Below are positions 1-64,000 of a stretch of 64,000 bases of DNA, piece by piece. A model generated the notes under the pieces. The model was not told the DNA's origin. It saw nothing but the letters and a program-made list of their open reading frames with translations, and ran no database searches. The DNA is taken from assembly GCA_964016885.1 (NCBI GenBank), contig OZ024757.1:43214001-43278000 (forward strand). Direction: 5' to 3'. A program made the translations under genes and the position numbers. Positions within the stretch are counted from its first letter, which is position 1, and every line of letters starts with the position of its first letter. The stretch is from Eledone cirrhosa. Its lineage: Eukaryota.

Positions 1-1563
1 GTCAAGGTCGCAGTACCGAACTGCGCATGCGCTAAGGCCGCCGGACCGTACTGCGCATGCGCCAAGGCCACCTGACTGTACTGCGCATGCGTCAAGGTCG
101 CAGTACCGAACTGCGCATGCGCTAAGGCCGCCGGACCGTACTGCGCATGCGCCAAGGCCGCCGGACCGTAGTGCGCATGCGCCAAGGCCGCCTGACTGTA
201 CTGCGCATGCATCAAGGTCCCAGTACCGTACTGCGCATGCACCAAGACCGCCGGACCGTAGTGCGCATGCGCCAGAGCCGCCGAACCGTAGTGCGCATGC
301 GCCAAGGCCGCCGGACCATACTGCGCATGCGCCAGGGCCGCCGGACCGTAGTGCGCATGCGCCAAAGACGCCGGACCGTAGTGCGCATGCGCCAAGGCCA
401 CCTGACTGTACTGCGCATGCGTCAAGGTCGCAGTACCGAACTGCGCATGCGCTAAGGCCGCCGGACCGTACTGCGCATGCGCCAAGGCCGCCTGACTGTA
501 GTGCGCAGGCGCCAAGGCCGCCGGGCCGTAGTGTGCATGCGCAAAGACCGCTGGCCCTTAGTGCGCATGCGGTTCGGCGGCCTTGGCGCAGGCGCACTAC
601 GGTCCGGCGACCTTCCCGCATGCGCACTACGTTCCGGTGGCCTTGGCACATGCGCAGTACGGTCCGGCGGCCTTGGCGCATGCGCACTACGTTCCGGCGG
701 CCTTGGCGCATGCGCACTACGTTCCGGTGGCCTTTGCGCATGCGCAGTACGGTCCAGCGGCTTTGGCGCATGCGCACAACGGTACGGCGGCCTTGGCGCA
801 TGCGCACTACGTTCCGGTGGCCTTGACGCATGCGCAGTACTGTCCAGTGGCCTTGGGGCATGCGCACTACAGTCCAGTGGCCTTGGCGCATGCGCAGTAA
901 GGTCCGGAGGCCATGGCGCATGCGCACTAAGGGCCAGCGGTCTTTGCGCATGCGCACAACGGTACGGCGGCCTTGGCGCATGCGCACTACGTTCCGGTGG
1001 CCTTGACGCATGCGCAGTACTGTCCAGTGGCCTTGGCGCATGCGCAGTAAGGTCCGGCGGCCTTAGCGCATGCGCAGTACGTTCCGGCGGCCTTGGCGCA
1101 TGCGCACTAAGGGCCATCGTTCTTTGCGCATGCGCACAACGGTCCGGCGGCCTTGGTGCATGCGCACTACGGTCCGGCAGCCTTGGCGCATGCGCACTAC
1201 GGTCCGGCGGCTTTGGTGCATGCGCACTACGGTCTAGCAGCATTGGGGCATGCGCACTACAGCCCGGCGGCCTTGGCGCATGCGCAGTACGGCCCGGCGA
1301 CCTTGGCGCATGCGCACTACGGTCTGGCGGCCTTGGCGCACGCGCACTACGGTCCGGCGGTCTTGGCGCATGCGCACTACGGTCCGGCGACCTTGCCGCA
1401 TGCGCACTACGTTCCGGTGGCCTTGGCACATGCGCAGTACGGTGCGGTGGCTTTGGCGCATGCGCACTACGGTCTGGCAGACTTGGCGCATGCGCACTAC
1501 GGTCCGATGGCCTTGGCGCATGCGCAATACGTCCTGGTGGCCTTGGCGCATGCGCAGTACAGT

Positions 1564-1619
1564 CCATATTTAGCCATTTTGAGATATTTTAGTAATTTAT
1601 GATGCAGTTTAACCATTTT
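1564..1619 (+). repeat. Mini AT-rich spacer (56-bp internal fragment of the 265-bp spacer)
   Basis: ccatatttagccattttgagatattttagtaatttatgatgcagtttaaccatttt matches the spacer interior. F array on the left, R array on the right. Confidence 0.93.
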
Positions 1620-3972
1620 CAAGGCCGCCGGACCGTACTGCGCATGCGCCAAGGCCACCTGACTGTACTGCGCATGCGTCAAGGTCGCAGTACCGAACTG
1701 CGCATGCGCTAAGGCCGCCGGACCGTACTGCGCATGCGCCAAGGCCGCCTGACTGTACTGCGCATGCGTCAAGGTCGCAGTACCGAACTGCGCATGCGTT
1801 AAGGCCGCCGGACCGTACTGCGCATGTGCCAAGGCCGCCGGACCGTAGTGCGCATGCGCCAAAGCCGCCGAACCGTACTGCGCATGCGCCAAGGCCGCCG
1901 GACCGTACTGCGCATGCGCCAAGGCCGCCGGACCGCAGTGCGCATGCGCCAGAGCCGCCGAACCGTAGTGCGCCTGCGTCAAGGTCGCCGGACCATACTG
2001 CGCATGCGCCAAGCCCTCCGGACCGTAGTGCGCATGCGCCAAAGCAGCTGGACCGTAGTGCGCATGCGCCAAGGCCACGGAACGGTACTGCGCAAGATCC
2101 AAGACCGCCGGATCGTACTGCGCATGCCCCAAGGCCGTCGGACAGTAGTGCGCATGTGCCAAGGCCGCCAGACCGTAGTGCGCATGCTCCAAGACCGCCG
2201 GATCTTACTGCACATGCCCCAAGGCCGTCGGACCGTAGTGCGCATGTGCCAAGGCCGCCAGACCGTGGTGCGCATGCGCCAAGGCCGCCGAACCGTACTG
2301 CGCATGCGCCAAGGCCGCCGGACCTTTGTGCGCATGCGGTTCGGCGGCCTTGGCGCATGCGCACTACGGTCCGGCGACCTTCCCGCATGCGCACTACGTT
2401 CCGGTGGCCTTGGCACATGCGCAGTACGGTCCGGCGGCTTTGGCGCATGCGCACTACGGTCTGGCCGCCGGACCGTAGTGCGCATGCGCCAATGCTGCCA
2501 GACCGTAGTGCGCATGCACCAAAGCTGACGGACCGTAGTGCGCATGCGCCAAGGCCGCCGGACCGTTGTGCGCATGCGCCAAGGCCACTGGACCGTACTG
2601 TGCATGCGCCAAGGCCACCAGAACGTAGTGCGCACGCGCCAAGGCCATCGGACCGTAGTGCGCATGCGCCAATGCTGCCAGACCGTAGTGCGCATGCACC
2701 AAAGCTGCCGGACCGTAGTGCGCATGCGCCAAGGCCGCCGGACCGTTGTGCGCATGCGCCAAGGCCACTGGACCGTAGTGCGCACGCGCCAATGCCATCG
2801 GACCGTAGTGCGCATGCGCCAAGTCTGCCAGACCGTAGTACGAATGCGCTAAAGCCACCGGACCGTACTGCGCATGTGCCAAGGCCACCGGAACGTAGTG
2901 CGCATGCGGCAAGGTCGCCGGACCGTAGTGCGCATGCGCCAAGACCGCCGGAGCGTAGTGTGCATGCGCCAATGCTGCCAGACCGTAGTGCGCATGCGCC
3001 AAGGCTGCCAGACCGTAGTGCGCATGCGCCAAAGCCGCCGGACCGTACTGCACATGTGCCAAGGCCACCGGAACGTAGTGCGCATGCGGGAAGGTCGCCG
3101 GACCGTAGTGCGCATGCGCCAAGGCCGCCGAACCGCATGCGCACAAAGGTCCGGCAGCCTTGGCGCATGCGCAGTACGGTTCGGCGGCCTTGGCGCATGC
3201 GCACTACGGTCTGGCGGCCTTGGCACATGCGCACTACGGTCCGACGGCCTTGGGGCATGTGCAGTAAGATCCGGCGGTCTTGGAGCATGCGCACTACGGT
3301 CTGGCGGCCTTGGCACATGCGCACTACTGTCCGACGGCCTTGGGGCATGCGCAGTACGATCCGGCGGTCTTGGATCATGCGCAGTACCGTCCCGTGGCCT
3401 TGGCGCATGCGCACTACGGTCCAGCTGCTTTGGCGCATGCGCAGTACGGTTCGGCGGCCTTAGCGCATGCGCACTACGGTCCGGAGGGCTTGGCGCATGC
3501 GCAGTATGGTCCGGCGACCTTGACGCAGGCGCACTACGGTTCGGCGGCTCTGGCGCATGCGCACTGCGGTCCGGCGGCCTTGGCGCATGCGCAGTACGGT
3601 CCGGCGGCCTTAGCGCATGCGCAGTCCGGTACTGGGACCTTGACGCATGCGCAGTACAGTCAGTCGGTCTTGGCGCATGCGCACTACGGTCCGGCGGCCT
3701 TGGCGCATGCGCAGTACGGTTCGGCGGCTTTGGCGCATGCGCACTACGGTCCGGCGGCCTTGGCACATGCGCAGTACGGTCCGGCGGCCTTAACGCATGC
3801 GTAGTTCGGTACTGCGACCTTGACGCATGCGCAGTACAGTCAGGCGGCCTTGGCGCATGCGCAGTACGGTCCGGCGGCCTTAGCGCATGCGCAGTTCGGT
3901 ACTGCGACCTTGACGCATGCGCAGTACAGTAAGGTGGCCTTGGCGCATGCGCAGTACGGTCCGGCGGCCTTG

Positions 3973-4028
3973 AAAATGGTTAAACTGCATCATAAATTAC
4001 TAAAATAACTCAAAATGGCTAAATATGG
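3973..4028 (-). repeat. Mini AT-rich spacer, inverted copy
   Basis: aaaatggttaaactgcatcataaattactaaaataactcaaaatggctaaatatgg is the reverse complement of 1564-1619 (one mismatch), with the same two junctions. Confidence 0.93.
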
Positions 4029-6035
4029 ACTGTACTGCGCATGCGCCAAGTCCACCAGGACGTAGTGCGCATGCGCCAAGGCCATCGGACCGTAGTGCGC
4101 ATGCGCCAAGTCTGCCAGACCGTAGTGCGCATGCGCCAAAGCCACCGAACCGTACTGCGCATGTGCCAAGGCCACCGGAACGTAGTGCGCATGCGGCAAG
4201 GTCGCCGGACCGTAGTGCGCATGCGCCAAGACCGCCGGACCGTAGTGCGCGTGCGCCAAGGCCGCCAGACCGTAGTGCGCATGCGCCAAGGTCGCCGGGC
4301 CGTACTGCGCATGCGCCAAGGCCGCCGGGCTGTAGTGCGCATGCCCCAATGCTGCTAGACCGTAGTGCGCATGCACCAAAGCCACCGGACCGTAGTGCGC
4401 ATGCGCCAAGGCTGCCGGACCGTACTGCGCATGCGCCAAGGCCGCCGGACCGTAGTGCGCATGCGCCAAGGCCGCCTGACTGTACTGCGCATGCATCAAA
4501 GTCCCAGTACCGTACTGCACATGCACCAAGACCGCCGGACCGTAGTGCGCATGCGCCAGAGCCGCCGAACCGTAGTGCGCATGCGCCAAGGCCGCCGGAC
4601 CATACTGCGCATGCGCCAAGGCCGCCGGGCCGTAGTGCGCATGCGCCAAAGACGCGGGCCCGTAGTGCGCATGCGCCAAGGCCACCTGACTGTACTGCGC
4701 ATGCGTCAAGGTCGCAGTACTGAACTGCGCATGCGCTAAGGCCGCCGGACCGTAATGTGCATGCGCCAAGGCCGCCTGACTGTACTGCGCATGCGTCAAG
4801 GTCGCAGTACCGAACTGCGCATGCGTTAAGGCCGGCGGCCTTGGCGCATGCGCACTACGTTCCGGTGGCCTTGACGCATGCGCAGTACTGTCCAGTGGCC
4901 TTGGCGCATGCGCAGTAAGGTCCGGCGGCCTTAGCGCATGCGCAGTACGTTGCGGCGGCCTTGGCGCATGCGCACTAAGGGCCATCGTTCTTTGCGCATG
5001 CGCACAACGGTCCGGCGGCCTTGGTGCATGCGCACTACGGTCCGGCAGCCTTGGCGCATGCGCACTACGGTCCGGCGGCTTTGGTGCATGCGCACTACGG
5101 TCTAGCAGCATTGGGGCATGCGCACTACAGCCCGGCGGCCTTGGCGCATGCGCAGTACGGCCCGGCGACCTTGGCGCATGCGCACTACGGTCTGGCGGCC
5201 TTGGCGCACGCGCACTACGGTCCGGCGGTCTTGGCGCATGCGCACTACGGTCCGGCGACCTTGTCGCATGCGCACTACGTCCTGGTGGCCTTGGCGCATG
5301 CGCAGTACAGTCCAGTGGCCTTGGCGCCTGCGCAGTAAGATCCGGCGGCCATGGCGCATGCGCACTAAGGGCCAGCGGTCTTTGCGCATGCGCAAAATGG
5401 TCCGGCGGCCTTGCCGCATGCACACTACGGCCCGGCGGCCTTGGCGCCTGCGCACTACGGTCCGGCGGCTTTGGTGCATGCGCACTACGGTCTGGCAGCA
5501 TTGGCGCATGCGCACTACGGTCCGGCGGTCTTGGCGCATGCGCACTACGGTCCGGCGACCTTGCCGCATGCGCACTACATTCCGGTGGCCTTGGCACATG
5601 CGCAGTACGGTCCGGTGGCTTTAGCGCATGCGCACTACGGTCTGGCAGACTTGGCGCATGCGCACTACGGTCTGATGGCCTTGGCGCGTGCGCACTACGG
5701 TCCGATGGCCTTGGCGCGTGCGCACTACGGTCCAGTGGCCTTGGCGCATGCGCACAACGGTCCGGTGGCCTTGGCGCATGCGCACTACGGTCCGGCAGCT
5801 TTGGTGCATGCGCACTACGGTCTGGCAACATTGGCGCATGCGCACTACGGTCCGGCGGCCTTGGCGCATGCGCAGTACGGCCCGGCGGCCTTGGCGCATG
5901 CGCACTACGGTCTGGCGGCCTTGGCGCATGCGCACTACGTTCCGGCGGCGTTGGCGCATGCGCACTACGGTTCGGAGGCCTTGGCGCATGCGCACTACGG
6001 TCCGACGTCCTTGACGCATGTGCAGTACGGTCCGG

Positions 6036-6300
6036 ATGAATTTTTAGCCATTTTAAGCCTTTATGTTGCCATATTTAGCCATTTTGAGTTATTTTAGTAA
6101 TTTATGATGCAGTTTAACCATTTTAGAGCCATTTATAGTCATTTTAGACGTTTCAGTCGTGTTAGAGTCATTCTAGTCAATTATGATACGGTTTTAGCAT
6201 TTTATTGTCACTTTAGTCATTTATTATGCCGTCTTAGTCATTTTGTTGTAATTTCAGACATACATGATGACATTTCGGCCATGTTAGTCCTTTTTGATGA
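6036..6300 (+). repeat. 265-bp AT-rich spacer, haplotype A
   Basis: atgaatttttagcc...ctttatgttgcc...tttttgatga, then agtgccc. Carries the private variant cttagtcattt, shared with the 39167 copy. Confidence 0.96.
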
Positions 6301-9060
6301 AGTGCCCATGCGCCAAGACCGCCAGACCGTACTGCGCATGCGCCAAGGGCGCCGGACCGTAGTGCGCATGCGCCAAGGCCGCCTGACTGTACTGCGCATG
6401 CGTCAAGGTCGCAGTACCGAACTGCGCATGCGCTAAGGCCGCCGAACCGCACTGCGCATGCGCCAAGGCCACCTGACTGTACTGCGTATGCGTCAAGGTC
6501 GCAGTACCGAACTGCGCATGCGCTAAGGCCGCCGGACCGTACTGCGCATGCGCCAAGGCCGCCGGACCGTAGTGCGCATGCGCCAAGGCCGCCTGACTGT
6601 ACTGCGCATGCATCAAGGTCCCAGTACCGTACTGCGCATGCACCAAGGCCACCAGGACGTAGTGCGCATGCGCCAAGGCCATCGGACCGTAGTGCGCATG
6701 CGCCAAGTCTGCCAGACCGTAGTGCGCATGCGCCAAAGCCACCGGACCGTACTGCGCATGTGCCAAGGCCACCGGAACGCAGTGCGCATGCGGCAAGGTC
6801 GCTGGACCGTAGTGCGCATGCGCCAAGACCGACGGTCCGGTGGCTTTGGCGCATGCGCACTACGGTCCGGCGTCCTTGGCGCATGTGCAGTACGGTCCGG
6901 TGACCTTGGCGCATGCGCACTACGGTCCAGCTGCTTTGGCGCATGCGCAGTACGGTTCAGCGGCCTTAGCGCATGCGCACTACGGTCCGGCGGGCTTGGC
7001 GCATGTGCAGTATGGTCCGGCGACCTTGACGCATGCGCACTACGGTTCGGCGGCTCTGGCGCATGCGCACTGCGGTCCGGCGGCCCTGGCGCATGCGCAC
7101 TACGTTCCGGTGGCCTTGGCGCATGCGCAGTACGCTCCAGTGGCCTTGGCGCATGCGCAGTAAGGTCCGGCGGCTTTGGCGCATGCGCACTATGGTCTGT
7201 CAGTCTTGGCGCATGCGCACTACGGTCCGGCTGCCTTCGTGGATGCGCACTACGTTCCGGCGGTCTTGCCGCATGCGCATTACGGTCCGGTGGCTTTGGC
7301 GCATGCGCACTACGGTCTGGCAGACTTGGCGCATGCGCACTACGGTCCGATGGCCTTGGCGCATGCGCACTACGGTCTGGCAGCATTGGCGCATGCGCAC
7401 TACGGTCCGGCGGTCTTGGCGCATGCGCACTACGGTCCGGCGACCTTGCCGCATGCGCACTACGTTCCGGTGGCCTTGGCACATGCGCAGTACGGTCCGG
7501 TGGCTTTAGCGCATGCGCACTACGGTCTGGCAGACTTGGCGCATGCGCACTACGGTCCGATGGCCTTGGCGCGTGCGCACTACGGTCCAGTGGCCTTGGC
7601 GCATGCGCACAACGGTCCGGCGGCCTTGGCGCATGCGCACTACGGTCCGGCAGCTTTGGTGCATGCGCACTACGGTCTGGCAGCATTGGCGCATGCGCAC
7701 TACGGTCCGGCGGCCTTGGCGCATGCGCAGTAAGGTCCGGCGGCCATGGCGCATGCGCACTAAGGGCCAGCGGTCTTTGCGCATGCGCACAATGGTACGG
7801 CGGCCTTGGCGCATGCGCACTACGTTCCGGTGGCCTTGACGCATGCGCAGTACTGTCCAGTGGCCTTGGCGCATGCGCAGTAAGGTCCGGCGGCCTTAGC
7901 GCATGCGCAGTACGTTCCGGCGGCCTTGGCGCATGCGCACTAAGGGCCATCGTTCTTTGCGCATGCGCACAACGGTCCGGCGGCCTTGGTGCATGCGCAC
8001 TACGGTCCGGCGGCCTTGGCGCATGCGCACTACGGTCCGGCGGCTTTGGTGCATGCGCACTACGGTCTAGCAGCATTGGAGCATGCGCACTACAGCCCGG
8101 CGGCCTTGGCGCATGCGCAGTACGGCCCGGCGACCTTGGCGCATGCGCACTACGGTCTGGCGGCCTTGGCGCACGCGCACTACGGTCCGGCGGTCTTGGC
8201 GCATGCGCACTACGGTCCGGCGACCTTGCCGCATGCGCACTACGTTCCGGTGGCCTTGGCACATGCGCAGTACGGTCCGGTGGCTTTGGCGCATGCGCAC
8301 TACGGTCTGGCAGACTTGGCGCATGCACACTACGGTCCGATGGCCTTGGCGCATGCGCACTACGTCCTGGTGGCCTTGGCGCATGCGCAGTACAGTCCAG
8401 TGGCCTTGGTGCATGCGCAGTGAGGTCCGGCGGCCTTAGCGCATGCGCAGTAAGGTCCGGCGGCCATGGCGCATGCGCACTAAGGGTCAGCGGTCTTTGC
8501 GCATGCGCACAACGGTCCGGCGGCCTTGGCGCATGCACACTACGGCCCGGCGGCCTTGGCGCCTGCGCACTACGGTCCGGCGGCTTTGGTGCATGCGCAC
8601 TACGGTGTGGCAGCATTGGCGCATGCGCACTACGGTCTGGCAGACTTGGCGCATGCGCACTACGGTCCGATGGCCTTGGCGCGTGCGCACTACGTTCTGG
8701 TGGCCTTGGCGCATGCACAGTACGGTCCAGTGGCCTTGGCGCATGCGCACAACGGTCCGGCGGCCTTGGCGCATGCGCACTACGGTCCGTCAGCTTTGGT
8801 GCATGCGCACTACGGTCTGGCAGCATTGGCGCATGCGCACTACGGTCCGGCGGCCTTGGCGCATGCGCAGTACGGCCCGGTGGCCTTGGCGCATGCGCAC
8901 TACGGTCTGGCGGCCTTGGCGCATGCGCACTACGGTCCGGCGGCCTTGGCGCATGCGCACTACGGTCCGGCGGCGTTGGCGCATGCGCACTACGGTTCGG
9001 AGGCCTTGGCGCATGCGCACTACGGTCCGACGTTCTTGACGCATGTGCAGTACGGTCCGG

Positions 9061-9325
9061 ATGACTTTTTAGCCATTTTAAGCCTTTGTGTTGCCATATT
9101 TAGCCATTTTGAGTTATTTTAGTAATTTATGATGCAGTTTAACCATTTTAGAGCCATTTATAGTCATTTTAGACGTTTCAGTCGTGTTAGAGTCATTCTA
9201 GTCAATTATGATACGGTTTTAGCATTTTATTGTCACTTTAGTCATTTATTATGCCGTCTTAGCCACTTTGTTGTAATTTCAGACATACATGATGACATTT
9301 CGGCCATGTTAGTCCTTTTTGATGA
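9061..9325 (+). repeat. 265-bp AT-rich spacer, haplotype B
   Basis: atgactttttagcc...ctttgtgttgcc...ttagccactttg...tttttgatga, then cgtgccc. Confidence 0.96.
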
Positions 9326-11295
9326 CGTGCCCATGCGCCAAGACCGCCAGACCGTACTGCGCACGCGTCGATACGGCCTGATCGTAGTGCGCATGCGCCA
9401 AAGCCGCCTAACCGTAGTGCGCATGCGCCAAGGCCGCCGATACATAGTGCACATGCGCCAAGGCCGTCGGACCATACTGCGCATGCGCCAAGGGCGCCGG
9501 ACAGTTGTGCGCATGCACCAAGGCCGCCTGACTTACTGCGCATGCGTCAAGGTCGCAGTACCGAACTGCGCATGCGCTAAGGCCTCCGGACCGTACTGCG
9601 CATGCGCCAAGGCCACCTGACTGTACAGCGCATGCGTCAAGGTCGCAGTACCGAACTGCGTATGCGCTAAGGCCGCCGGACCGTACTGCGCATGCGCCAA
9701 GGCCGCCGGACCGTAGTGCGCATGCGCCAAGGCCGCCTGACTGTACTGCGCATGCATCAAAGTCCCAGTACCGTACTGCACATGCACCAAGACCGCCGGA
9801 CCGTAGTGCGCATGCGCCAGAGCCGCCGAACCGTAGTGCGCATGCGCCAAGGCCGCCGGACCATACTGCGCATGCGCCAAGGCCGCCGGGCCGTAGTGCG
9901 CATGCGCCAAAGACGCGGGCCCGTAGTGCGCATGCGCCAAGGCCACCTGACTGTACTGCGCATGCGTCAAGGTCGCAGTACTGAACTGCGCATGCGCTAA
10001 GGCCGCCGGACCGTAATGTGCATGCGCCAAGGCCGCCTGACTGTACTGCGCATGCGTCAAGGTCGCAGTACCGAACTGCGCATGCGTTAAGGCCGGCGGC
10101 CTTGGCGCATGCGCACTACGTTCCGGTGGCCTTGACGCATGCGCAGTACTGTCCAGTGGCCTTGGCGCATGCGCAGTAAGGTCCGGCGGCCTTAGCGCAT
10201 GCGCAGTACGTTCCGGCGGCCTTGGCGCATGCGCACTAAGGGCCATCGTTCTTTGCGCATGCGCACAACGGTCCGGCGGCCTTGGTGCATGCGCACTACG
10301 GTCCGGCAGCCTTGGCGCATGCGCACTACGGTCCGGCGGCTTTCGTGCATGCGCACTACGGTCTAGCAGCATTGGGGCATGCGCACTACAGCCCGGCGGC
10401 CTTGGCGCATGCGCAGTACGGCCCGGCGACCTTGGCGCATGCGCACTACGGTCTGGCGGCCTTGGCGCACGCGCACTACGGTCCGGCGGTCTTGGCGCAT
10501 GCGCACTACGGTCCGGCGACCTTGTCGCATGCGCACTACGTCCTGGTGGCCTTGGCGCATGCGCAGTACAGTCCAGTGGCCTTGGCGCCTGCGCAGTAAG
10601 ATCCGGCGGCCATGGCGCATGCGCACTAAGGGCCAGCGGTCTTTGCGCATGCGCAAAATGGTCCGGCGGCCTTGCCGCATGCACACTACGGCCCGGCGGC
10701 CTTGGCGCCTGCGCACTACGGTCCGGCGGCTTTGGTTCATGCGCACTACGGTCTGGCAGCATTGGCGCATGCGCACTACGGTCCGGCGGTCTTGGCGCAT
10801 GCGCACTACGGTCCGGCGACCTTGCCGCATGCGCACTACATTCCGGTGGCCTTGGCACATGCGCAGTACGGTCCGGTGGCTTTAGCGCATGCGCACTACG
10901 GTCTGGCAGACTTGGCGCATGCGCACTACGGTCTGATGGCCTTGGCGCGTGCGCACTACGGTCCGATGGCCTTGGCGCGTGCGCACTACGGTCCAGTGGC
11001 CTTGGCGCATGCGCACAACGGTCCGGTGGCCTTGGCGCATGCGCACTACGGTCCGGCAGCTTTGGTGCATGCGCACTACGGTCTGGCAACATTGGCGCAT
11101 GCGCACTACGGTCCGCGGCCTTGGCGCATGCGCAGTACGGCCCGGCGGCCTTGGCGCATGCGCACTACGGTCTGGCGGCCTTGGCGCATGCGCACTACGT
11201 TCCGGCGGCGTTGGCGCATGCGCACTACGGTTCGGAGGCCTTGGCGCATGCGCACTACGGTCCGACGTCCTTGACGCATGTGCAGTACGGTCCGG

Positions 11296-11560
11296 ATGAA
11301 TTTTTAGCCATTTTAAGCCTTTATGTTGCCATATTTAGCCATTTTGAGTTATTTTAGTAATTTATGATGCAGTTTAACCATTTTAGAGCCATTTATAGTC
11401 ATTTTAGACGTTTCAGTCGTGTTAGAGTCATTCTAGTCAATTATGATACGGTTTTAGCATTTTATTGTCACTTTAGTCATTTATTATGCCGTCTTAGCCA
11501 TTTTGTTGTAATTTCAGACATACATGATGACATTTCGGCCATGTTAGTCCTTTTTGATGA
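11296..11560 (+). repeat. AT-rich spacer, haplotype A
   Basis: Near-identical to 6036-6300. Confidence 0.96.
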
Positions 11561-20887: not shown

Positions 20888-23800
20888 AGTGCCCATGCGC
20901 CAAGACCGCCAGACCGTACTGCGCATGCGCCAAGGGCGCCGGACCGTAGTGCGCATGCGCCAAGGCCGCCTGACTGTACTGCGCATGCGTCAAGGTCGCA
21001 GTACCGAACTGCGCATGCGCTAAGGCCGCCGAACCGCACTGCGCATGCGCCAAGGCAACCTGACTGTACTGCGCATGCGTCAAGGTCGCAGTACCGAACT
21101 GCGCATGCGCTAAGGCCGCCGGACCGTACTGCGCATGCGCCAAGGCCGCCGGACCGTAGTGCGCATGCGCCAAGGCCGCCTGACTGTACTGCGCATGCAT
21201 CAAGGTCCCAGTACCGTACTGCGCATGCACCAAGGCCACCAGGACGTAGTGCGCATGCGCCAAGGCCATCGGACCGTAGTGCGCATGCGCCAAGTCTGCC
21301 AGACCGTAGTGCGCATGCGCCAAAGCCACCGGACCGTACTGCGCATGTGCCAAGGCCACCGGAACGTAGTGCGCATGCGGCAAGGTCGCTGGACCGTAGT
21401 GCGCATGCGCCAAGACCGACGGTCCGGTGGCTTTGGCGCATGCGCACTACGGTCCGGCGTCCTTGGCGCATGTGCAGTACGGTCCGGTGACCTTGGCGCA
21501 TGCGCACTACGGTCCAGCTGCTTTGGCGCATGCGCAGTACGGTTCAGCGGCCTTAGCGCATGCGCACTACGGTCCGGCGGGCTTGGCGCATGTGCAGTAT
21601 GGTCCGGCGACCTTGACGCATGCGCACTACGGTTCGGCGGCTCTGGCGCATGCGCACTGCGGTCAGCGGCCTTGGCGCATGCGCACTACGTTCCGGTGGC
21701 CTTGGCGCATGCGCAGTACGCTCCAGTGGCCTTGGCGCATGCGCAGTAAGGTCCGGCGGCTTTGGCGCATGCGCACTATGGTCTGTCAGTCTTGGCGCAT
21801 GCGCACTACGGTCCGGCTGCCTTCGTGGATGCGCACTACGTTCCGGCGGCCTTGCCGCATGCGCACTACGGTCCGGTGGCTTTGGCGCATGCGCACTACG
21901 GTCTGGCAGACTTGGCGCATGCGCACTACGGTCCGATGGCCTTGGCGCATGCGCACTACGGTCTGGCAGCATTGGCGCATGCACACTACGGTCCGGCGGT
22001 CTTGGCGCATGCGCACTACGGTCCGGCGACCTTGCCGCATGCGCACTACGTTCCGGTGGCCTTGGCACATGCGCAGTACGGTCCGGTGGCTTTAGCGCAT
22101 GCGCACTACGGTCTGGCAGACTTGGCGCATGCGCACTACGGTCCGATGGCCTTGGCGCGTGCGCACTACGGTCCAGTGGCCTTGGCGCATGCGCACAACG
22201 GTCCGGCGGCCTTGGCGCATGCGCACTACGGTCCGGCAGCTTTGGTGCATGCGCACTACGGTCTGGCAGCATTGGCGCATGCGCACTACGGTCCGGCGGC
22301 CTTGGCGCATGCGCAGTAAGGTCCGGCGGCCATGGCGCATGCGCACTAAGGGCCAGCGGTCTTTGCGCATGCGCACAATGGTACGGCGGCCTTGGCGCAT
22401 GCGCACTACGTTCCGGTGGCCTTGACGCATGCGCAGTACTGTCCAGTGGCCTTGGCGCATGCGCAGTAAGGTCCGGCGGCCTTGGCGCATGCGCAGTACG
22501 TTCCGGCGGCCTTGGCGCATGCGCACTAAGGGCCATCGTTCTTTGAGCATGCGCACAACGGTCCGGCGACCTTGCCGCATGCGCACTACGTTCCGGTGGC
22601 CTTGGCACATGCGCAGTACGGTCCGGTGGCTTTGGCGCATGCGCACTACGGTCTGGCAGACTTGGCGCATGCACACTACGGTCCGATGGCCTTGGCGCAT
22701 GCGCACTACGTCCTGGTGGCCTTGGCGCATGCGCAGTACAGTCCAGTGGCCTTGGCGCATGCGCAGTGAGGTCCGGCGGCCTTAGCGCATGCGCAGTAAG
22801 GTCCGGCGGCCATGGCGCATGCGCACTAAGGGTCAGCGGTCTTTGCGCATGCGCACAACGGTCCGGCGGCCTTGGCGCATGCACACTACGGCCCGGCGGC
22901 CTTGGCGCCTGCGCACTACGGCCCGGCGGCTTTGGTGCATGCGCACTACGGTGTGGCAGCATTGGCGCATGCGCACTACGGTCTGGCAGACTTGGCGCAT
23001 GCGCACTACGGTCCGATGGCCTTGGCGCGTGCGCACTACGTTCTGGTGGCCTTGGCGCATGCGCACTACGTTCCGGTGGCCTTTGCGCATGCGCAGTACG
23101 GTCCAGCGGCCTTGGCGCATGCGCACAACGTTACGGTGGCCTTGGCGCATGCGCAGTACTGTCCAGTGGCCTTGGCGCATGCGCAGTAAGGTCCGGCGGC
23201 CTTAGCGCATGCGCAGTACGTTCCGGCGGCCTTGGCGCATGCGCACTAAGGGCCATCGTTCTTTGCGCATGCGCACAACGGTCCGGCGGCCTTGGTGCAT
23301 GCGCACTACGGTCCGGCGGCCTTGGCGCATGCGCACTACGGTCCGGCGGCTTTGGTGCATGCGCACTACGGTCTAGCAGCATTGGGACATGCGCACTACA
23401 GCCCGGCGGCCTTGGCGCATGCGCAGTACGGCCCGGCGACCTTGGCGCATGCGCACTACGGTCTGGCGGCCTTGGCGCACGCGCACTACGGTCCGGCGGT
23501 CTTGGCGCATGCGCACTACGGTCCGGCGACCTTGCCGCATGCGCACTACGTTCCGGTGGCCTTGGCACATGCGCATGCGCCAAGGCCGCCGGACCGTAGT
23601 GCGCATGCGCCAAGGCCGCCTGACTGTACTGCGCATGCATCAAGGTCCCAGTACCGTACTGCGCATGCACCAAGGCCACCAGGACGTAGTGCGCATGCGC
23701 CAAGGCCATCGGACCGTAGTGCGCATGCGCCAAGTCTGCCAGACCGTAGTGCGCATGCGCCAAAGCCACCGGACCGTACTGCGCATGTGCCAAGGCCACC

Positions 23801-51522: not shown

Positions 51523-52856
51523 CGTGCCCATGCGCCAAGACCGCCAGACCGTACTGCGCACGCGTCGATACGGCCTGATCGTAGTGCGCATGCGCCAAAG
51601 CCGCCTAACCGTAGTGCGCATGCGCCAAGGCCGCCGATACATAGTGCACATGCGCCAAGGCCGTCGGACCATACTGCGCATGCGCCAAGGGCGCCGGACA
51701 GTTGTGCGCATGCACCAAGGCCGCCTGACTTACTGCGCATGCGTCAAGGTCGCAGTACCGAACTGCGCATGCGCTAAGGCCTCCGGACCGTACTGCGCAT
51801 ACGCCAAGGCCACCTGACTGTACTGCGCATGCGTCAAGGTCGCAGTACCGTACTGCGCATGCGCCAAGGCCGCCGGACCGTAGTGCGCATGCGCCAAGGC
51901 CACCTGACTGTACTGCGCATGCATCAAAGTCCCAGTACCGTACTGCACATGCACCAAGACCGCCGGACCGTAGTGCGCATGCGCCAAGGCCGCCGGACCA
52001 TACTGCGCATGCGCCAAGGCCACCTGACTGTACTGCGCATGCGTCAAGGTCGCAGTACTGAACTGCGCATGCGCTAAGGCCGCCGGACCGTAATGTGCAT
52101 GCGCCAAGGCCGCCTGACTGTACTGCGCATGCGTCAAGGTCGCAGTACCGAACTGCGCATGCGTTAAGGCCGGCGGCCTTGGCGCATGCGCACTACGTTC
52201 CGGTGGCCTTGACGCATGCGCAGTACTGTCCAGTGGCCTTGGCGCATGCGCAGTAAGGTCCGGCGGCCTTAGCGCATGCGCAGTACGTTCCGGCGGCCTT
52301 GGCGCATGCGCACTAAGGGCCATCGTTCTTTGCGCATGCGCTCAACGGTCCGGCGGCCTTGGTGCATGCGCACTACGGTCCGGCAGCCTTGGCGCATGCG
52401 CACTACGGTCCGGCGGCTTTGGTGCATGCGCACTACGGTCTAGCAGCATTGGGGCATGCGCACTACAGCCCGGCGGCCTTGGCGCATGCGCAGTACGGCC
52501 CGGCGACCTTGGCGCATGCGCACTACGGTCTGGCGGCCTTGGCGCACGCGCACTACGGTCCGGCGGTCTTGGCGCATGCGCACTACGGTCCAGCGACCTT
52601 GCCGCATGCGCACTACGTTCCGGTGGCCTTGGCACATGCGCAGTACGGTCCGGTGGCTTTGGCGCATGCGCACTACGGTCTGGCAGACTTGGCGCATGCG
52701 CACTACGGTCCGATGGCCTTGGCGCATGCGCACTACGTCCTGGTGGCCTTGGTGCATGCGCAGTACGGTACTGGGACCTTGATGCATGCGCAGTACAGTC
52801 AGGCGGCCTTGGCGCATGCGCACTACGGTCCGGCGGCCTTGGCGCATGCGCAGTAC

Positions 52857-53965
52857 GCCAAGGCCGCCGGGCTGTAGTGCGCATGCCCCAATGCTGCTAG
52901 ACCGTAGTGCGCATGCACCAAAGCCGCCGGACCGTAGTGCGCATGCGCCAAGGCCGCCGGACCGTAGTGCGCATGCACCAAGGCCGCCGGACCGTTGTGC
53001 GCATGCGCAAAGAACGATGGCCCTTAGTGCACATGCGCCAAGGCCGCCGGAACGTACTGCGCATGCGCTAATGTCGCCGGACCTTACTGCGCATGCGCCA
53101 AGGCCACTGGACAGTACTGCGCATGCGTCAAGGCCACCGGTACGTAGTGCGCATGCGCCAAGGCCGCGGTACCGTTGTGCGCATTCGCAAAGACCGCTGG
53201 CCCTTAGTGCGCATGCGCCATGGCCGTCGGACCTTACTGCGCATGCGCTAAGGCCGCCGGACCTTACTGCGCATGCGCCAAGGCCAGTGGACTGTACTGC
53301 GCATGCGCCAAGGCCACTAGGACGTAGTGCGCATGCGCCAAGGCCATCGGACCGTAGTGCGCATGCGCCAAGTCTGCCAGACCGTAGTGCGCATGCGCCA
53401 AAGCCACCGGACCGTACTGCGCATGTGCCAAGGCCACCGGAACGTAGTGAGCATGCGGCAAGGTCGCCGGACCGTAGTGCGCATGCGCCAAGACCGCCGG
53501 ACCGTAGTGCGCGTGCGCCAAGGCCGCCAGACCGTAGTGCGCATGCGCCAAGGTCGCCGGGCCGTACTGCGCATGCGCCAAGGCCGCCGGGCTGTAGTGC
53601 GCATGCCCCAATGCTGCTAGACCGTAGTGCGCATGCACCAAAGCCGCCGGACCGTAGTGCGCATGCGCCAAGGCCGCCGGACCGTAGTGCGCATGCACCA
53701 AGGCCGCCGGACCGTTGTGCGCATGCGCAAAGAACGATGGCCCTTATTGCGCATGCGCCAAGGCCGCCGGAACGTACTGCGCATGCGCTAAGGCCGCCGG
53801 GCCTTACTGCGCATGCGCCAAGGCCACTGGACAGTACTGCGCATGCGCCAAGGCCACCGTAACGTTGTGCGCATGCGCCAAGGCCGCTGGACCGTACTGC
53901 GCATGCGCAAAGGCCACCGGAACGTAGTGCGCATGCGCCAAGGCGGCCGGAACGTAGTGCGCATG
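52857..53965 (-). repeat. Inverted copy of an F-arm segment (about 37.2-38.3 kb or its paralogs)
   Basis: Contains reverse complements of F-arm landmarks: gcattcgcaa (ttgcgaatgc), ggccactaggacg, aggccagtggactg, caccgtaacgttg. Confidence 0.87.
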
Positions 53966-54584
53966 TCGGCATGCGCACAACGGTACGGCGGCCTTGGCGC
54001 ATGCGCACTACGTTCTGGTGGCCTTGACGCATGCGCAGTACTGTCCAGTGGCCTTGGCGCATGCGCAGTAAGGTCCGGCGGCCTTAGCGCATGCGCAGTA
54101 CTTTCCGGCGGCCTTGGCGCATGCGCACTAAGGGCCATCGTTCTTTGCGCATGCGCACAACGGTCCGGCGGCCTTGGTGCATGCGCACTACGGTCCGGCA
54201 GCCTTGGCGCATGCGCACTACGGCCCGGTGGATTTGGTGCATGCGCACTACGGTCTAGCAGCATTGGGGCATGCGCACTACAGCCCAGCTGCCTTGGCGC
54301 ATGCGCAGTACGGCCCGGCGACCTTGGCGCATGCGCACTACGGTCTGGCGGCCTTGGCGCACGCGCACTACGGTCCGGCGGTCTTGGCGCATGCGCACTA
54401 CGGTCCGGCGACCTTGCCGCATGCGCACTACGTTCCGGTGGCCTTGGCACATGCGCAGTACGGTCCGGTGGCTTTGGCGCATGCGCACTACGGTCTGGCA
54501 GACTTGGCGCATGCGCACTACGGTCCGATGGCCTTGGCGCATGCGCACTACGTCCTGGTGGCCTTGGCGCATGCGCAGTACAGT

Positions 54585-54816
54585 CCATATTTAGCCATTT
54601 TGAGTTATTTTAGTAATTTATGATGCAGTTTAACCATTTTAGAGCCATTTATAGTCATTTTAGACGTTTCAGTCGTGTTAGAGTCATTCTAGTCAATTAT
54701 GATACGGTTTTAGCATTTTATTGTCACTTTAGTCATTTATTATGCCGTCTTAGCCATTTTGTTGTAATTTCAGACATACATGATGACATTTCGGCCATGT
54801 TAGTCCTTTTTGATGA
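54585..54816 (+). repeat. AT-rich spacer, 5'-truncated, B-like right end
   Basis: Starts cagtccatatttagcc (the same left junction as the mini-spacer at 1564) and ends gatgacgtgccc, but has ttagccattttg. Confidence 0.94.
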
Positions 54817-57800
54817 CGTGCCCATGCGCCAAGACCGCCAGACCTTACTGCGCACGCGCCGAGACGGCGTGATCGTAGTGCGCATGCGCCAAAGCCGCCT
54901 AACCGTAGTGCGCATGCGCCAAGGCCGCCGATACATAGTGCACATGCGCCAAGGCCGTCGGACTATACTGCGCATGCGCCAAGGGCGCCGGACCGTTGTG
55001 CGCATGCGCCAAGGCCGCCTGACTGTACTGCGCATGCGTCAAGGTCGCATTACCGAACTGCGCATGCGCTAAGGCCGCCGGACCGTACTGCGCATGCGCC
55101 AAGGCCACCTGACTGTACTGCGCATGCGTCAAGGTCGCAGTACCGAACTGCGCATGCGCTAAGGCCGCCGGACCGTACTGCGCATGCGCCAAGGCCGCCT
55201 GACTGTACTGCGCATGCATCAAGGTCCCAGTACCGTACTGCGCATGCACCAAGACCGCCGGACCGTAGTGCGCATGCGCCAGAGCCGCCGAACCGTAGTG
55301 CGCATGCGCCAAGGCCGCCGGACCATACTGCGCATGCGCCAAGACCGCCGGGCCGTAGTGCGCATGCGCCAAAGACGCGGGCCCGTAGTGCGCATGCGCC
55401 AAGGCCACCTGACTGTACTGCGCATGCGTCAAGGTCGCAGTACTGAACTGCGCATGCGCTAAGGCCGCCGGACGGTAATGCGCATGCGCCAAGGCCGCCT
55501 GACTGTACTGCGCATGCGTCAAGGTCGCAGTACCGAACTGCGCATGCGTCAAGTTCCCAGTACCGAACTGCGCATGCGCTAAGGCCGCCGGACCGTACTG
55601 CGCATGCGCCAAGGCCACCGGACCGTAGTGCGCATGCGCCAAGGCCGCCTGACTGTACTGCGCATGCGTCAAGGTCCCAGTACCGAACTGCGCATGCGCT
55701 AAGGCCGCCGGACCGTACTGCGCATGCGCCAAGGCCGCCGGACCGCATTGCGCATGCGCCAGAGCCGCCGAACCGTAGTGCGCATGCGTCAAGGTCGCCG
55801 GACCATACTGCGCATGCGCCAAGCCCGCCGGACCGTAGTGCGCATGGGCCAAAGCCGTCTGACCGTACTGCGCATGCGCCAAGTCCGCTGTACCGTACTG
55901 CGCATGCGACAAGGCCGCAGTACCGTAGTGCGCATGAGCCAAGGCCATATGACCGTAGTGCGCATGCGCCAAGGCCGCCGGACCGTAGTGCGCATGCGCC
56001 AAGGCCGCCGGATCGTAGTGCGCATGCGCCAAAGCCGCTGAACCGTAGTGCGCATGCGCCAAGGCCGCCGATACATAGTGCACATGCGCCAAGGCCGTCG
56101 GTCCATACTGCGCATGCGCCAAGGCCGCCGGACCGTAGTGCGCATGTGCCAAGGCCGCCTGACTGTACTGCGCATGCGTCAAGGTCGCAGTACCGAACTG
56201 CGCATGCGCTAAGGCCGCCGGACCGTACTGCGCATGCGCCAAGGCCACCTGACTGTACTGCGCATGCGTCAAGGTCGCAGTACCGAACTGCGCATGCGCT
56301 AAGGCCGCCGGACCGTACTGCGCATGCGCCAAGGCCGCCAGACCGTAGTGCTCATGCGCCAAGGCCGCCTGACTGTACTGCGCATGCATCAAGGTCCCGG
56401 TACCGTACTGCGCATGCACCAAGACCGCCGGACCGTAGTGCGCATGCGCCAGAGCCGCCGAACCGTAGTGCGCATGCGCCAAGACCGACTGACTGTACTG
56501 CGCATGCGTCAAGGTCCCAGTACCGAACTGCGCATGCGCTAAGGCCGCCGGACCGTACTGCGCATGCGCCAAGGCCGCCGGACCGCAGTGCGCATGCGCC
56601 AGAGCCGCCCAACCGTAGTGCGCCTGCGTCAAGGTCGCCGGATCATACTGCGCATGCGCCAAGCCCGCCGGACCGTAGTGCACATGCGCTAAGGCCGCCG
56701 AACCGTACTGCGCATGCGCCAAAGCAGCTGGACCGTAGTGCGCATGCGCCAAGGCCACGGGACGGTACTGCGCATGCTTCAAGACCGCCGGATCGTACTG
56801 CGCATGCCCCAAGGCCGTCGGACAGTAGTGCGCATGTGCCAAGGCCACCAGACCGTAGTGCGCATGCTCCAAGACCGCCGGATCTTACTGCGCATGCCCC
56901 AAGGCCGTCGGACCGTAGTGCGCATGTGCCAAGGCCGCCAGACCGTAGTGCGCATGCGCCAAGGCCGCCGAACCGTACTGCGCATGCGCCAAGGCCGCCG
57001 GACCATACTGTGCATGCGCCAAGGCCGCCGGACCGTAGTGCGCATGCCCCAAAGACGCCGGACCGTAGTGCGCATGCGCCAAGGCCACCTGACTGTACTG
57101 CGCATGCGTCAAGGTCGCAGTACCGAACTGCGCATGCGCTAAGGCCGCCGGACCGTACTGCGCATGCGCCAAGGCCGCCTGACTGTACTGCGCATGCGTC
57201 AAGGTCGCAGTACCGAACTGCGCATGCGTTAAGGCCGCCGGACCGTACTGCGCATGTGCCAAGGCCGCCATACCGTAGTGCGCATGCGCCAAGGCCGCCG
57301 AACCGTACTGCGCATGCGCCAAGGCCGCCGGACCATACTGTGCATGCGCCAAGGCCGCCGGACCGTAGTGCGCATGCCCCAAAGACGCCGGACCGTAGTG
57401 CGCATGCGCCAAGGCCACCTGACTGTACTGCGCATGCGTCAAGGTCGCAGTACCGAACTGCGCATGCGCTAAGGCCGCCGGACCGTACTGCGCATGTACC
57501 AAGGCCGCCGGACCGTAGTGCGCATGCGCCAAAGCCGCCGAACCGTACTGCGCATGCGCCAAGGCCGCCGGACCGTAGTGCGCATGCGCCAAGACCGACT
57601 GACTGTACTGCGCATGCGTCAAGGTCCCAGTACCGAACTGCGCATGCGCTAAGGCCGCCGGACCGTACTGCGCATGCGCCAAGGCCGCCGGACCGCAGTG
57701 CGCATGCGCCAGAGCCGCCGAACCGTAGTGCGCCTGCGTCAAGGTCGCCGAACCATACTGCGCATGCGCCAAGCCCGCCGGACCGTAGTGCGCATGCGCT

Positions 57801-60640: not shown

Positions 60641-62699
60641 CGTGCCCATGCGCCAAGACCGCCAGACCGTACTGCGCACGCGTCGAGACGGCCTGATCGT
60701 AGTGCGCATGCGCCAAAGCCGCCTAACCGTAGTGCGCATGCGCCAAGGCCGCCGATACATAGTGCACATGCGCCAAGGCCGTCGGACCATACTGCGCATG
60801 CGCCAAGGGCGCCGGACAGTTGTGCGCATGCACCAAGGCCGCCTGACTTACTGCGCATGCGTCAAGGTCGCAGTACCGAACTGCGCATGCGCTAAGGCCT
60901 CCGGACCGTACTGCGCATGCGCCAATGCCACCTGACTGTACTGCGCATGCGTCAAGGTCGCAGTACCGAACTGCGCATGCGCTAAGGCCGCCGGACCGTA
61001 CTGCGCATGCGCCAAGGCCGCCGGACCGTAGTGCGCATGCGCCAAGGCCGCCTGACTGTACTGCGCATGCATCAAAGTCTCAGTACCGTACTGCGCATGC
61101 ACCAAGACCGCCGGACCGTAGTGCGCATGCGCCAGAGCCGCCGAACCGTAGTGCACATGCGCCAAGGCCGCCGGACCATACTGCGCATGCGCCAAGGCCG
61201 CCGGGCCGTAGTGCGCATGCGCCAAAGACGCGGGCCCGTAGTGCGCATGCGCCAAGGCCACCTGACTGTACTGCGCATGCGTCAAGGTCGCAGTACTGAA
61301 CTGCGCATGCGCATAGGCCGCCGGACCGTAATGCGCATGCGCCAAGGCCGCCTGAATGTACTGCGCATGCGTCAAGGTCGCAGTACCGAACTGCGCATGC
61401 GTTAAGGCCGCCGGACCGTACTGCGCATGTGCCAAAGCCGCCGGACCGTAGTGCGCATGCGCCAAGGCCGCCGGACCGTAGTGCGCATGCGCCAAGGCCG
61501 CCTGACTGTACTGCGCATGCGTCAAGGTCCCAGTACCGAACTGCGCATGCGCTAAGGCCGCCGGACCGTACTGCGCATGCGCCAAGGCCGCCGGACCGCA
61601 GTGCGCATGCGCCAGAGCCGCCGAACCGTAGTGCGCATGCGTCAAGGTCGCTTGACCATACTGCGCATGCGCCAAGCCCGCCGGACCGTAGTGCGCATGG
61701 GCCAAAGCCGCCTGACCGTACTGCGCATGCGCCAAGTCCGCAGTACCGTACTGCGCATGCGACAGGGCCGCAGTACCGTAGTGCGCATGCGCCAAGGCCA
61801 TATGACCGTAGTGCGCATGTGCCAAGGCCGCCGGACCGTAGTGCGCATGCGCCAAGGCCGCCGGATCGTAGTGCGCATGCGCCAAAGCCGCCGAACCGTA
61901 GTGCGCATGCGCCAAGGCCGCCGATACATAGTGCACATGCGCCAAGGCCGTCGGACCATACTGCGCATGCGCCAAGGCCGCCGGACCGTAGTGCGCATGT
62001 GCCAAGGCCGCCTGACTGTACTGCGCATGCGTCAAGGTCGCAGTACCGAACTGCGCATGCGCTAAGGCCGCCGGACCGTACTGCGCATGCGCCAAGGCCG
62101 CCGGACCGTAGTGCGCATGCGCCAAGGCCACTGGACTGTAGTGCTCATGCCCCAAGGCCACTGGACAGTACTGCGCATGCGTCAAGGCCACCGGAACGTA
62201 GTGCGCATGCGCCAAGGCCGCCGTACCGTTGTGCTTTGCGCATGCGCACAATGGTACGGCGGCCTTGGCGCATGCGCACTACGTTCCGTTGGCCTTGACG
62301 CATGCGCAGTACTGTCCAGTGGCCTTGGCGCATGCGCAGTACGGTCCGGCGGCCTTAGCGCATGCGCAGTTCGGTACTGCGACCTTGACGCATGCGCAGT
62401 ACAGTCAGGTGGCCTTGGCGCATGCGCAGTACGGTCCGGAGGCCTTAGCGCATGCGCAGTTCGGTACTGCGACCTTGACGCATGCGCAGTAAGTCAGGCG
62501 GCCTTGGTGCATGCGCACAACTGTCCGGCGCCCTTGGCGCATGCGCAGTATGGTCCGACGGCCTTGGCGCATGTGCACTATGTATCGGCGGCCTTGGCGC
62601 ATGCGCACTACGGTTAGGCGGCTTTGGCGCATGCGCACTACGATCAGGCCGTATCGACGCGTGCGCAGTACGGTCTGGCGGTCTTGGCGCATGGGCACG

Positions 62700-62964
62700 T
62701 CATCAAAAAGGACTAACATGGCCGAAATGTCATCATGTATGTCTGAAATTACAACAAAGTGGCTAAGACGGCATAATAAATGACTAAAGTGACAATAAAA
62801 TGCTAAAACCGTATCATAATTGACTAGAATGACTCTAACACGACTGAAACGTCTAAAATGACTATAAATGGCTCTAAAATGGTTAAACTGCATCATAAAT
62901 TACTAAAATAACTCAAAATGGCTAAATATGGCAACACAAAGGCTTAAAATGGCTAAAAAGTCAT
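62700..62964 (-). repeat. AT-rich spacer, haplotype B, inverted
   Basis: tcatcaaaaaggactaac...ggctaaaaagtcat is the reverse complement of the B spacer. Still has F on the left and R on the right. Confidence 0.95.
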
Positions 62965-64000
62965 CCGGACCGTACTGCACATGCGTCAAGAACGTCGGAC
63001 CGTAGTGCGCATGCGCCAAGGCCTCCGAACCGTAGTGCGCATGCGCCAACGCCGCCGGACCGTAGTGCGCATGCGCCAAGGCCGCCGGACCGTAGTGCGC
63101 ATGCGCCAAGGCCGCCAGACCATAGTGCGCATGCGCCAAGGCCGCCGGGCCGTACTGCGCATGCGCCAAGGCCGCCGGACCGTAGTGCGCATGCGCCAAT
63201 GCTGCCAGACCGTAGTGCGCATGCACCAAAGCTGCCGGACCGTAGTGCGCATGCGCCAAGGCCGCCGGACCGTTGTGCGCATGCGCCAAGGCCACTGGAC
63301 CGTACTGTGCATGCGCCAAGGCCACCAGAACGTAGTGCGCACGCGCCAAGGCCATCGGACCGTAGTGCGCATGCGCCAAGTCTGCCAGACCGTAGTGCGC
63401 ATGCGCCAATGCTGCCACACCGTAGTGCGCATGCACCAAAGCCGCCGGACCGTAGTGCGCAGGCGCCAAGGCCGCCGAGCCGTAGTGTGCATGCGCCAAG
63501 GCCGCCGGACCGTTGTGCGCATGCGCAAAGACCGCTGACCCTTAGTGCGCATGCGCCATGGCCGCCGGACCTTACTACGCATGCGCTAAGGCCGCCGGAC
63601 CTCACTGCGCATGCGCCAAGGCCACTGGACTGTACTGCGCATGCGCCAAGGCCACCAGGACGTAGTGCGCATGCGCCAAGGCCACCAGGACGTAGTGCGC
63701 ATGCGCCAAGGCCATCGGACCGTAGTGCGCATGCGCCAAGTCTGCCAGATCGTAGTGCGCATGCGCCAAAGCCACCGGACCGTACTGCGCATGTGCCAAG
63801 GCCACCGGAACGTAGTGCGCATGCGGCAAGGTCGCCGGACCGTAGTGCGCATGCGCCAAGACCGCCGGACCGTAGTGCGCGTGCGCCAAGGCCGCCAGAC
63901 CGTAGTGCGCATGCGCCAAGGTCGCCGGGCCGTACTGCGCATGCGCCAAGGCCGCCGGGCTGTAGTGCGCATGCTCCAATGCTGCTAGACCGTAGTGCGC

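Follow-up and report, generated by a model that had tools for sequence, protein, structure and literature searches.

Satellite arrays with macro-dyad symmetry have been described from beetles: TmSat1 and TmSat2 of T. madens (PMC13081366) and TfSat01 and TfSat03 of T. freemani (PMC12581902). Such symmetries are documented in Tribolium only, and their link to centromeres is tentative (PMC13081366). The inversion types of TfSat01 are free of extraneous sequence, and the cassettes of TfSat03 have a conserved centre of ∼110 bp where orientation changes (PMC12581902); spread and homogenisation are named by the Tribolium authors as a possible cause of inversion-site conservation. Other systems of opposed repeats derive from transposons. 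Foldback transposons have opposed tandem-repeat arms around a non-coding middle, and their repeats can seed satellites (PMC4079207); the Xenopus Xstir and Xmix repeats have been reviewed as MITE-derived (PMC12628747, PMC9659126).

The array examined here occupies the whole of the analysed stretch of DNA (64 kb; hereafter the window, within which all positions are numbered). Judged by layout, the Tribolium macro-dyad satellites appear to be its closest known system: both have opposed kilobase subarrays, unequal arms, two intermingled repeats and few, highly conserved types of inversion site with many copies each, and TfSat03 also shares a conserved centre at the orientation change. In contrast to Tribolium, the monomer is GC-rich and 30 bp long, and orientation switches every 1.45 kb on average (about 1.5 kb). 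Unlike in TfSat01, 19 of the 44 switches contain an unrelated AT repeat, in pieces of up to 270 bp; the other 25 are without extraneous sequence. The Tribolium domains are multi-megabase, putatively (peri)centromeric and found on many chromosomes, whereas the present array is known from one 64-kb window.

Monomer map and AT spacers

The GC-rich 30-bp satellite array (1..64000, both orientations, unstranded) continues past both window ends. Of the 1941 monomers called, which represent 280 variants, 1338 are forward (F) and 603 are reverse (R); they form 45 orientation runs of 90–4199 bp separated by 22 F-to-R and 22 R-to-F switches. Arm lengths are strongly unequal (e.g. 4199 versus 749 bp). 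The array is a non-coding satellite. A protein-coding repeat was rejected despite open frames of up to 1375 codons, for want of a synonymous excess in any of the six frames (synonymous share 0.25–0.31; neutral 0.28–0.35). Bases 1–12000 gave no Rfam match, a tRNA scan gave no tRNA, and the exact monomer was found in none of the metagenome or viral contigs searched.

An AT spacer is present at 19 of the 22 F-to-R switches in the monomer map of the window and at none of the 22 R-to-F switches; three F-to-R switches (at about 2466, 23572 and 52857) have none. These counts and coordinates, including two inverted spacers, reproduce those of the earlier note. Full spacers of 270 bp occur as two alleles. 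Allele A (6035..6304, + strand) has 31 % GC, units of about 40 bp and a TT period of 10.0 bp that was matched by none of 200 shuffles; further copies start at 11295, 18505, 20622, 30147, 34551, 39166, 44427 and 48862. Allele B (9060..9329, + strand) recurs at 16269, 27911, 42191, 51257 and 60385, the last copy being short by 10 bp, and in inverted form at 62696..62965 (− strand), where 1655 bp of the B unit recur in inverted orientation (97 %). A 233-bp spacer (54588..54820, + strand) combines L2, the second type of left junction, with the common right junction. A 53-bp spacer (1567..1619, + strand) has junctions L2 and R2, and its inverted counterpart (3973..4025, − strand) falls within an arm of a 949-bp inverted duplication (1126–2074 versus 3518–4466, 95.8 %). 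The arm–spacer–arm unit that the earlier note described is real; its AT core is not wholly constant, with three length forms and two alleles.

The spacer is a fragment of a second, AT-rich 10/40-bp repeat unrelated to the 30-bp monomer. In organisms A, B and C, contigs show this repeat extending past the part that matches the spacer. Five raw reads join the spacer end phase to the spacer start phase, and within each unit the repeat has a single, unmirrored orientation. The spacers reduce to two left junctions (16 and 3 copies) and two right junctions (17 and 2 copies), and those with a common junction also carry matching strings of flanking monomers. Since so few junction sequences are involved, the 19 copies are not independent evidence.

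Higher-order repeat and orientation switches

The arm–spacer–arm unit is amplified as a higher-order repeat (HOR). One copy of the basic 5.26-kb form (4849..10109, + strand) reads F39, spacer A, R17, join c, F74, spacer B, R25, join b. Random monomer pairs are 82 % identical, yet copies of this two-spacer block are 99.6–100 % alike, and six A units differ at 0–6 letters per 1580 bp; the copies bear private differences. The 5.3-kb HOR is best read as young. Neighbouring spacers are 2059–7291 bp apart.

All 22 R-to-F joins consist of fused monomer pieces and sort, by eye, into six types (4+7+8+1+1+1 copies); the inversion sites as a whole comprise these six, three spacer forms and three unique spacer-less F-to-R joins. 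The last are unstranded. The first (2455..2475) is a fusion at a short GGCC palindrome. The second (23560..23585), a fusion at a monomer palindrome, reads as a ∼2-kb deletion that took the spacer out: its left side matches a spacer-bearing unit over 3312 bp, and 225 bp of the R arm of that unit type follow on the right. The third lies at 52845..52865. One true mirror pair (600 bp, 97.5 %, 101-bp gap; 53288..54587, unstranded) is centred on an R-to-F join without spacer. Long hairpins are predicted across switches. The idea that the spacer acts as a loop stabilising the inverted arms on either side was dismissed, since 25 of the 44 switches lack it.

Origin of the placement rule

The placement of the spacers is likely a matter of inheritance, not of function. 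All 19 are probably amplified descendants of one seed, created when one inversion spanned the boundary between two satellites; descent from one ancestral junction, which the earlier note had entered as a caveat, is favoured by the shared junctions and by simulation. The array would have started as the 30-bp GC satellite adjoining the 10/40-bp AT satellite, and one inversion of a segment spanning the F|AT border would, by geometry alone, have yielded a single F-spacer-R seed. Multiplication by unequal exchange may then have produced the young 5.3-kb HOR, and deletions the short spacers and spacer-less switches, with short monomer palindromes as presumed microhomology for the fusion of F and R monomers.

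In-register monomer exchange, direct or inverted, cannot change the flanks of a spacer, and inversion of F-spacer-R gives F-spacer′-R, so both inverted spacers have F on the left and R on the right. The arrangement is invariant under these operations. In a neutral toy simulation, in which an array was grown from one seed and the share of non-homologous events was varied, all spacers kept F-spacer-R in 97 of 97 scored runs under homologous exchange only; the rule remained perfect in 58 of 98 runs at 2 % non-homologous events, 22 of 101 at 5 % and just 6 of 89 at 10 %. Neutral inheritance therefore works only if non-homologous events are rare. In the array itself 3 of 22 F-to-R switches are spacer-less, a share between those of the 2 % and 5 % settings.

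Outside the window, organism A has a contig of 419 bp (depth 126) in which F monomers run into a longer and diverged AT repeat, with polarity as predicted; this contig is equally compatible with a foldback ancestor. Organism B also has the L2 and right junctions, so that the arrangement has outlasted at least one split between the labelled organisms. Contigs of organism D match monomers and give no spacer cover; they carry no weight either way.

It is possible, if unlikely, that the seed goes back instead to the interior of a DNA transposon of foldback or MITE-like kind. The arms of this transposon would have had 30-bp binding-site repeats on the outside and AT repeats towards the middle, and tandem amplification of that middle would have gone with loss of the ends. 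The locus has tandem-repeat modules in arms about a non-coding middle domain, an anatomy shared with Drosophila FB and Tetris (PMC4079207). The polarity from F to AT seen again in the diverged organism A contig would suit such an ancestor, as would a low-depth 834-bp contig of that organism with a short degenerate monomer match amid other sequence. Against it, the arms at all 19 spacer switches match at background level (24.0–25.5 of 30 letters; background mean 25.35, 95th percentile 26.5; 2 of the 44 switches, with one arm too short, were unscored), and mirror arms around the spacers were rejected. The arms are very unequal, the AT repeat is unmirrored, and none of the 22 R-to-F joins has non-monomer terminal sequence or defined outer ends with target-site duplications of 8–10 bp. 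Eight inverted pairs are close together and of high identity; a spacer lies between the arms of just one of them (175 bp), and off-centre. The array is accordingly not a tandem foldback, one of the alternatives raised in the earlier note: its arms are not mirror copies, and transposon ends and target-site duplications are absent from the window. Compared with FB and Tetris, the locus lacks mirror arms, an outer flanking domain and target-site duplications, and no dispersed complete copy was seen. With Xstir and Xmix (PMC12628747, PMC9659126) it may share short tandem repeats from the interior of an inverted-repeat element, a likeness judged by layout; the 64-kb window contains neither a MITE form nor a composite carrying element ends.

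Selection on the layout as a structural chromosome element (centromere-, origin- or pairing-like), in which arrays of binding palindromes flank a bent AT-rich core, is improbable and not needed to explain the rule. An NRF1-type palindrome stands in every monomer. Its exact 10-bp form, GCGCATGCGC, the preferred site of NRF1, a factor with invertebrate homologs (PMC10810270), occurs at 1235 places (6.3 expected), in about 64 % of monomers; here the candidate binding site belongs to a satellite and not to a promoter. Besides these candidate sites, the TT period of the spacer, the long predicted hairpins and the similar layout of (peri)centromeric Tribolium satellites favour a structural role. However, the rule arises without selection in the toy simulation; arm orientation is irrelevant to a dimer on the site because the site is a palindrome; the spacer is deleted or shortened to 53 bp in five places; and the count of GCGCATGCGC just mirrors the number of monomers. 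Moreover, one thin organism B contig (depth 3.26) appears to break the placement rule: a piece of spacer there is flanked by F left and right, on one side over 18 letters.

Among established variants, the monomer core is 2.3–4.4 times less variable than the remainder. Before correction for shared ancestry the difference looked strong (3.3 changes per site against 15.6). After spanning-tree correction, the contrast between old and young variants was significant at only one of three thresholds (P=0.62, 0.38 and 0.005). The less variable stretch overlaps the right half-site of the NRF1-type palindrome more than the left, which varies. The lower variability of the core leaves room for constraint. 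In established variants, CpG sites have 10.9 transitions each and other C/G sites 6.25; in rare variants the figures are 2.8 and 2.2. The observed/expected ratio of CpG is 1.17, and the signal of CpG decay is weak.

That the orientation switches are an assembly artefact is scarcely credible: no short-read contig covers a whole unit and the read check concerns the spacer junctions, but three contigs of run X1 with 30-letter overlaps chain F-spacer-R (depths 184, 434 and 250), 2159 of 3055 aligned reads of raw run X9 cross spacer ends, with F monomers at the L2 junction in 198, and the HOR copies differ privately. Short reads (assembled contigs and RAD reads) confirm the spacer junctions. The monomer-to-spacer ratio from contig depth was not used, since short contigs overlap and their depth is not a copy number.

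Significance

Dense, conserved orientation switches of a satellite, so far reported for Tribolium alone (PMC13081366), would be present in a second animal phylum if the source is, as is likely, an octopus; the monomer variants let the history of the array be read. "Highly conserved inversion sites" can come from the copying of one junction, which provides a neutral null for the functional reading of the beetle arrays. A bolder reading, in which an octopod has the first macro-dyad satellite known outside Tribolium and the array works as a (peri)centromeric element of selected layout, with thousands of NRF1-type sites in opposed arms around a phased, bent AT core, is very doubtful as a whole. 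A literature search found no description of cephalopod centromeres; if the array were centromeric or bound by NRF1, it would offer a handle on them.

Monomer array and higher-order repeat

The entire window is made up of a single satellite with a 30-bp monomer (67 % GC). Scanned in a fixed phase, it yielded 1941 monomers, of which 1338 run forward (F) and 603 in reverse (R); a second-phase scan gave 1946 monomers in 280 variants, and random monomer pairs had 24.6 of 30 letters in common. The switch and spacer counts and coordinates of the earlier note were confirmed by monomer mapping: there are 44 orientation switches (22 F-to-R and 22 R-to-F), an AT-rich spacer is present at 19 of the 22 F-to-R switches, with none at about 2466, 23572 and 52857, and the monomer map has no spacer at any of the 22 R-to-F switches. 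All R-to-F joins are fused monomer pieces, among which six types were distinguished by eye (with 4, 7, 8, 1, 1 and 1 copies); short monomer palindromes form the fusion point in four of nine spacer-less join types (by eye). To the left of the 23572 switch, 3312 bp match a spacer-bearing unit; to its right the match resumes within the R arm of that unit type, so that the switch reads as a putative deletion of ∼2 kb that would have removed the spacer. The array is non-coding, as judged from synonymous change in six frames, a tRNA scan and an Rfam search of bases 1–12000; frames free of stops over as many as 1375 codons, which encode a ten-residue repeat (all six frames), could give rise to gene mis-calls.

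A higher-order repeat spans about 4.8 to 52 kb of the window. Its basic unit (4849–10109; 5.26 kb) contains two spacers, and variation on this form comes from recombinant arms and from duplications within the unit. Among six copies of a 1580-bp block, 0–6 letters differ, and amplification was therefore recent. True inverted duplications (600–949 bp, 96–98 % identity) were located at 1126–4466 and 52173–54587; they cluster at both ends of the window, where the array is more scrambled, and lie outside the regular higher-order block. The array is a real, young satellite with dense inversions.

Spacer forms and origin of the placement rule

Alignment of all 19 spacers with their flanks gave three forms: 16 full copies, a single 233-bp copy and two 53-bp copies. 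The full spacer is 270 bp long (one copy is 10 bp shorter) and occurs in two sequence versions, allele A (nine copies) and allele B (seven copies). The shorter forms are nested within it and were probably derived from it by deletions. The earlier note had observed that all 19 spacers have F monomers on the left and R monomers on the right (F-S-R). This rule counts as a single observation, not as nineteen independent ones: the monomer strings flanking the spacers recur in the same order, and in-register monomer exchange, direct or inverted, leaves junctions untouched. The two inverted spacers give no extra support because F-spacer-R when inverted is again F-spacer′-R; the one at 62700 sits in a 1655-bp inverted copy (97 %) of a unit with an allele B spacer. 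As the 19 spacers use two junctions on the left (16 and 3 copies) and two on the right (17 and 2 copies), descent from one ancestral junction, raised earlier as a caveat, is favoured, and the rule was probably inherited in this way.

The spacer has 31 % GC, is T-rich on one strand and contains degenerate ∼40-bp units. Its TT period of 10.0 bp was attained by none of 200 dinucleotide shuffles; the T-tracts are phased with this period (6035–6304 and copies), and bent DNA is therefore predicted. The monomer length equals three such periods. Parts of the locus were present in runs of four coded organisms, and the AT repeat runs past the spacer match in contigs from three of them (A, B and C). Five raw reads join the last spacer phase to the first, so both spacer ends lie at the same point of the AT unit. 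A 419-bp contig from organism A (run X1, depth 126, matched at 6138–6187) carries F monomers left of a diverged, longer AT repeat. The AT continuation together with this contig indicates that the spacer is part of a second satellite and that an F-to-AT border exists outside the window array. Inversion of a segment across such a border would produce F-spacer-R by geometry alone, which is the origin we propose. An 834-bp contig of the same run (low depth, matched at 6354–6439) has a short degenerate monomer match amid other sequence and is perhaps a dispersed copy.

Possible foldback ancestry and structural function

A foldback ancestor ranks second and is considered unlikely. According to PMC4079207, foldback elements carry long terminal repeats that are mirror copies of each other, together with outer ends and 8–10 bp target-site duplications; the array differs in having neither mirror-copy arms nor element ends in the window. 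Monomers on either side of the spacer matched at 24.0–25.5 of 30 at 19/19 spacer switches (best of nine offsets), where the background averages 25.35 and has its 95th percentile at 26.5; this scoring left out two switches, and 28.5 of 30 was reached at one R-to-F join. None of the longer true mirror pairs is centred on a spacer, and one 175-bp mirror pair encloses a short spacer off-centre. The tandemly amplified foldback option of the earlier note was rejected on the background-level arms and absent ends.

A selected structural element, ranked third, is improbable. The palindrome GCGCATGCGC, carried by each monomer and with 1235 exact sites in the window, is the preferred NRF1 site, and NRF1 has homologs in sea urchin and fly, according to PMC10810270. 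Nine positions around it were 2.3–4.4 times less variable among established variants; the contrast with private changes reached significance at one threshold out of three (P 0.62, 0.38 and 0.005; window-corrected 0.48, 0.38 and 0.03), and A/T positions of the monomer vary little throughout. The low-variability stretch is offset toward one half-site. Since the NRF1-type site is symmetric, it would not need oriented arms. Single strands over switches were predicted to form long imperfect hairpins, with −0.52 kcal/mol per base at R-to-F joins vs −0.25 to −0.31 where the array runs one way; such folding is expected of any inverted array. The array may have a structural role. A toy simulation was run from one seed with arbitrary parameters (400 runs per setting, scored only if at least 10 spacers were present at the end). 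All spacers were F-S-R in 97/97 scored runs with homologous events only, and in 58/98, 22/101 and 6/89 with 2, 5 and 10 % non-homologous events; the spacer-less share of F-to-R switches was 14 % observed vs 10 % (2 % setting) and 23 % (5 % setting). Under this model, selection is shown to be unnecessary for the rule.

Read support and related satellites

Read support for the arrangement concerns the spacer junctions. Three X1 contigs with 30-letter overlaps chain over F, spacer and R, no single contig covering the whole stretch. Of the 3055 reads placed from RAD run X9 (raw data, organism A), 2159 extend past the spacer ends; at the second left junction (that of three window copies), 198 reads carry F monomers, and none of the six loose ends listed for X9 is R-left or F-right. 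Allele B was found in 1225/1359 X9 reads at 6301, and allele A in 9/17 window copies. Allele A accounts for about half of the window copies vs about 4–10 % of reads from X9, another individual (positions 6040 and 6301), an excess that suggests a local or individual-specific sub-array. Several spacer variants in X9 reads are missing from the window; with the dominance of allele B, it is therefore likely that the family extends well past it. The second left junction also occurs in organism B, as does, on a different contig, the common right junction (that of 17 copies). In one organism B contig (X4, matched at 6069–6154, depth 3.26), F monomers flank an 86-bp spacer piece on both sides (18 letters on one side), a hint of a possible breach of the rule.

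The closest precedent is the macro-dyad satellites of Tribolium (PMC12581902 and PMC13081366), with kilobase inverted subarrays, few conserved inversion types and two intermingled satellites; TfSat03 cassettes have a ∼110-bp conserved centre (PMC12581902). What sets the window array apart is a short GC monomer, the density of its switches and a foreign spacer. PMC13081366 describes the pattern as documented only in Tribolium, and its conservation as possibly stemming from spread instead of function. Xstir repeats are treated in the reviews PMC12628747 and PMC9659126, and octopus satellites are reported to be relatively more methylated (PMC9476566). No description of the window satellite was found in the literature searched, and it looks undescribed; a repeat-library annotation may exist. 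Monomer depth, which is not copy number, was thousands of times greater in X1 than in X4–X6, which suggests that the monomer expansion is specific to one lineage.
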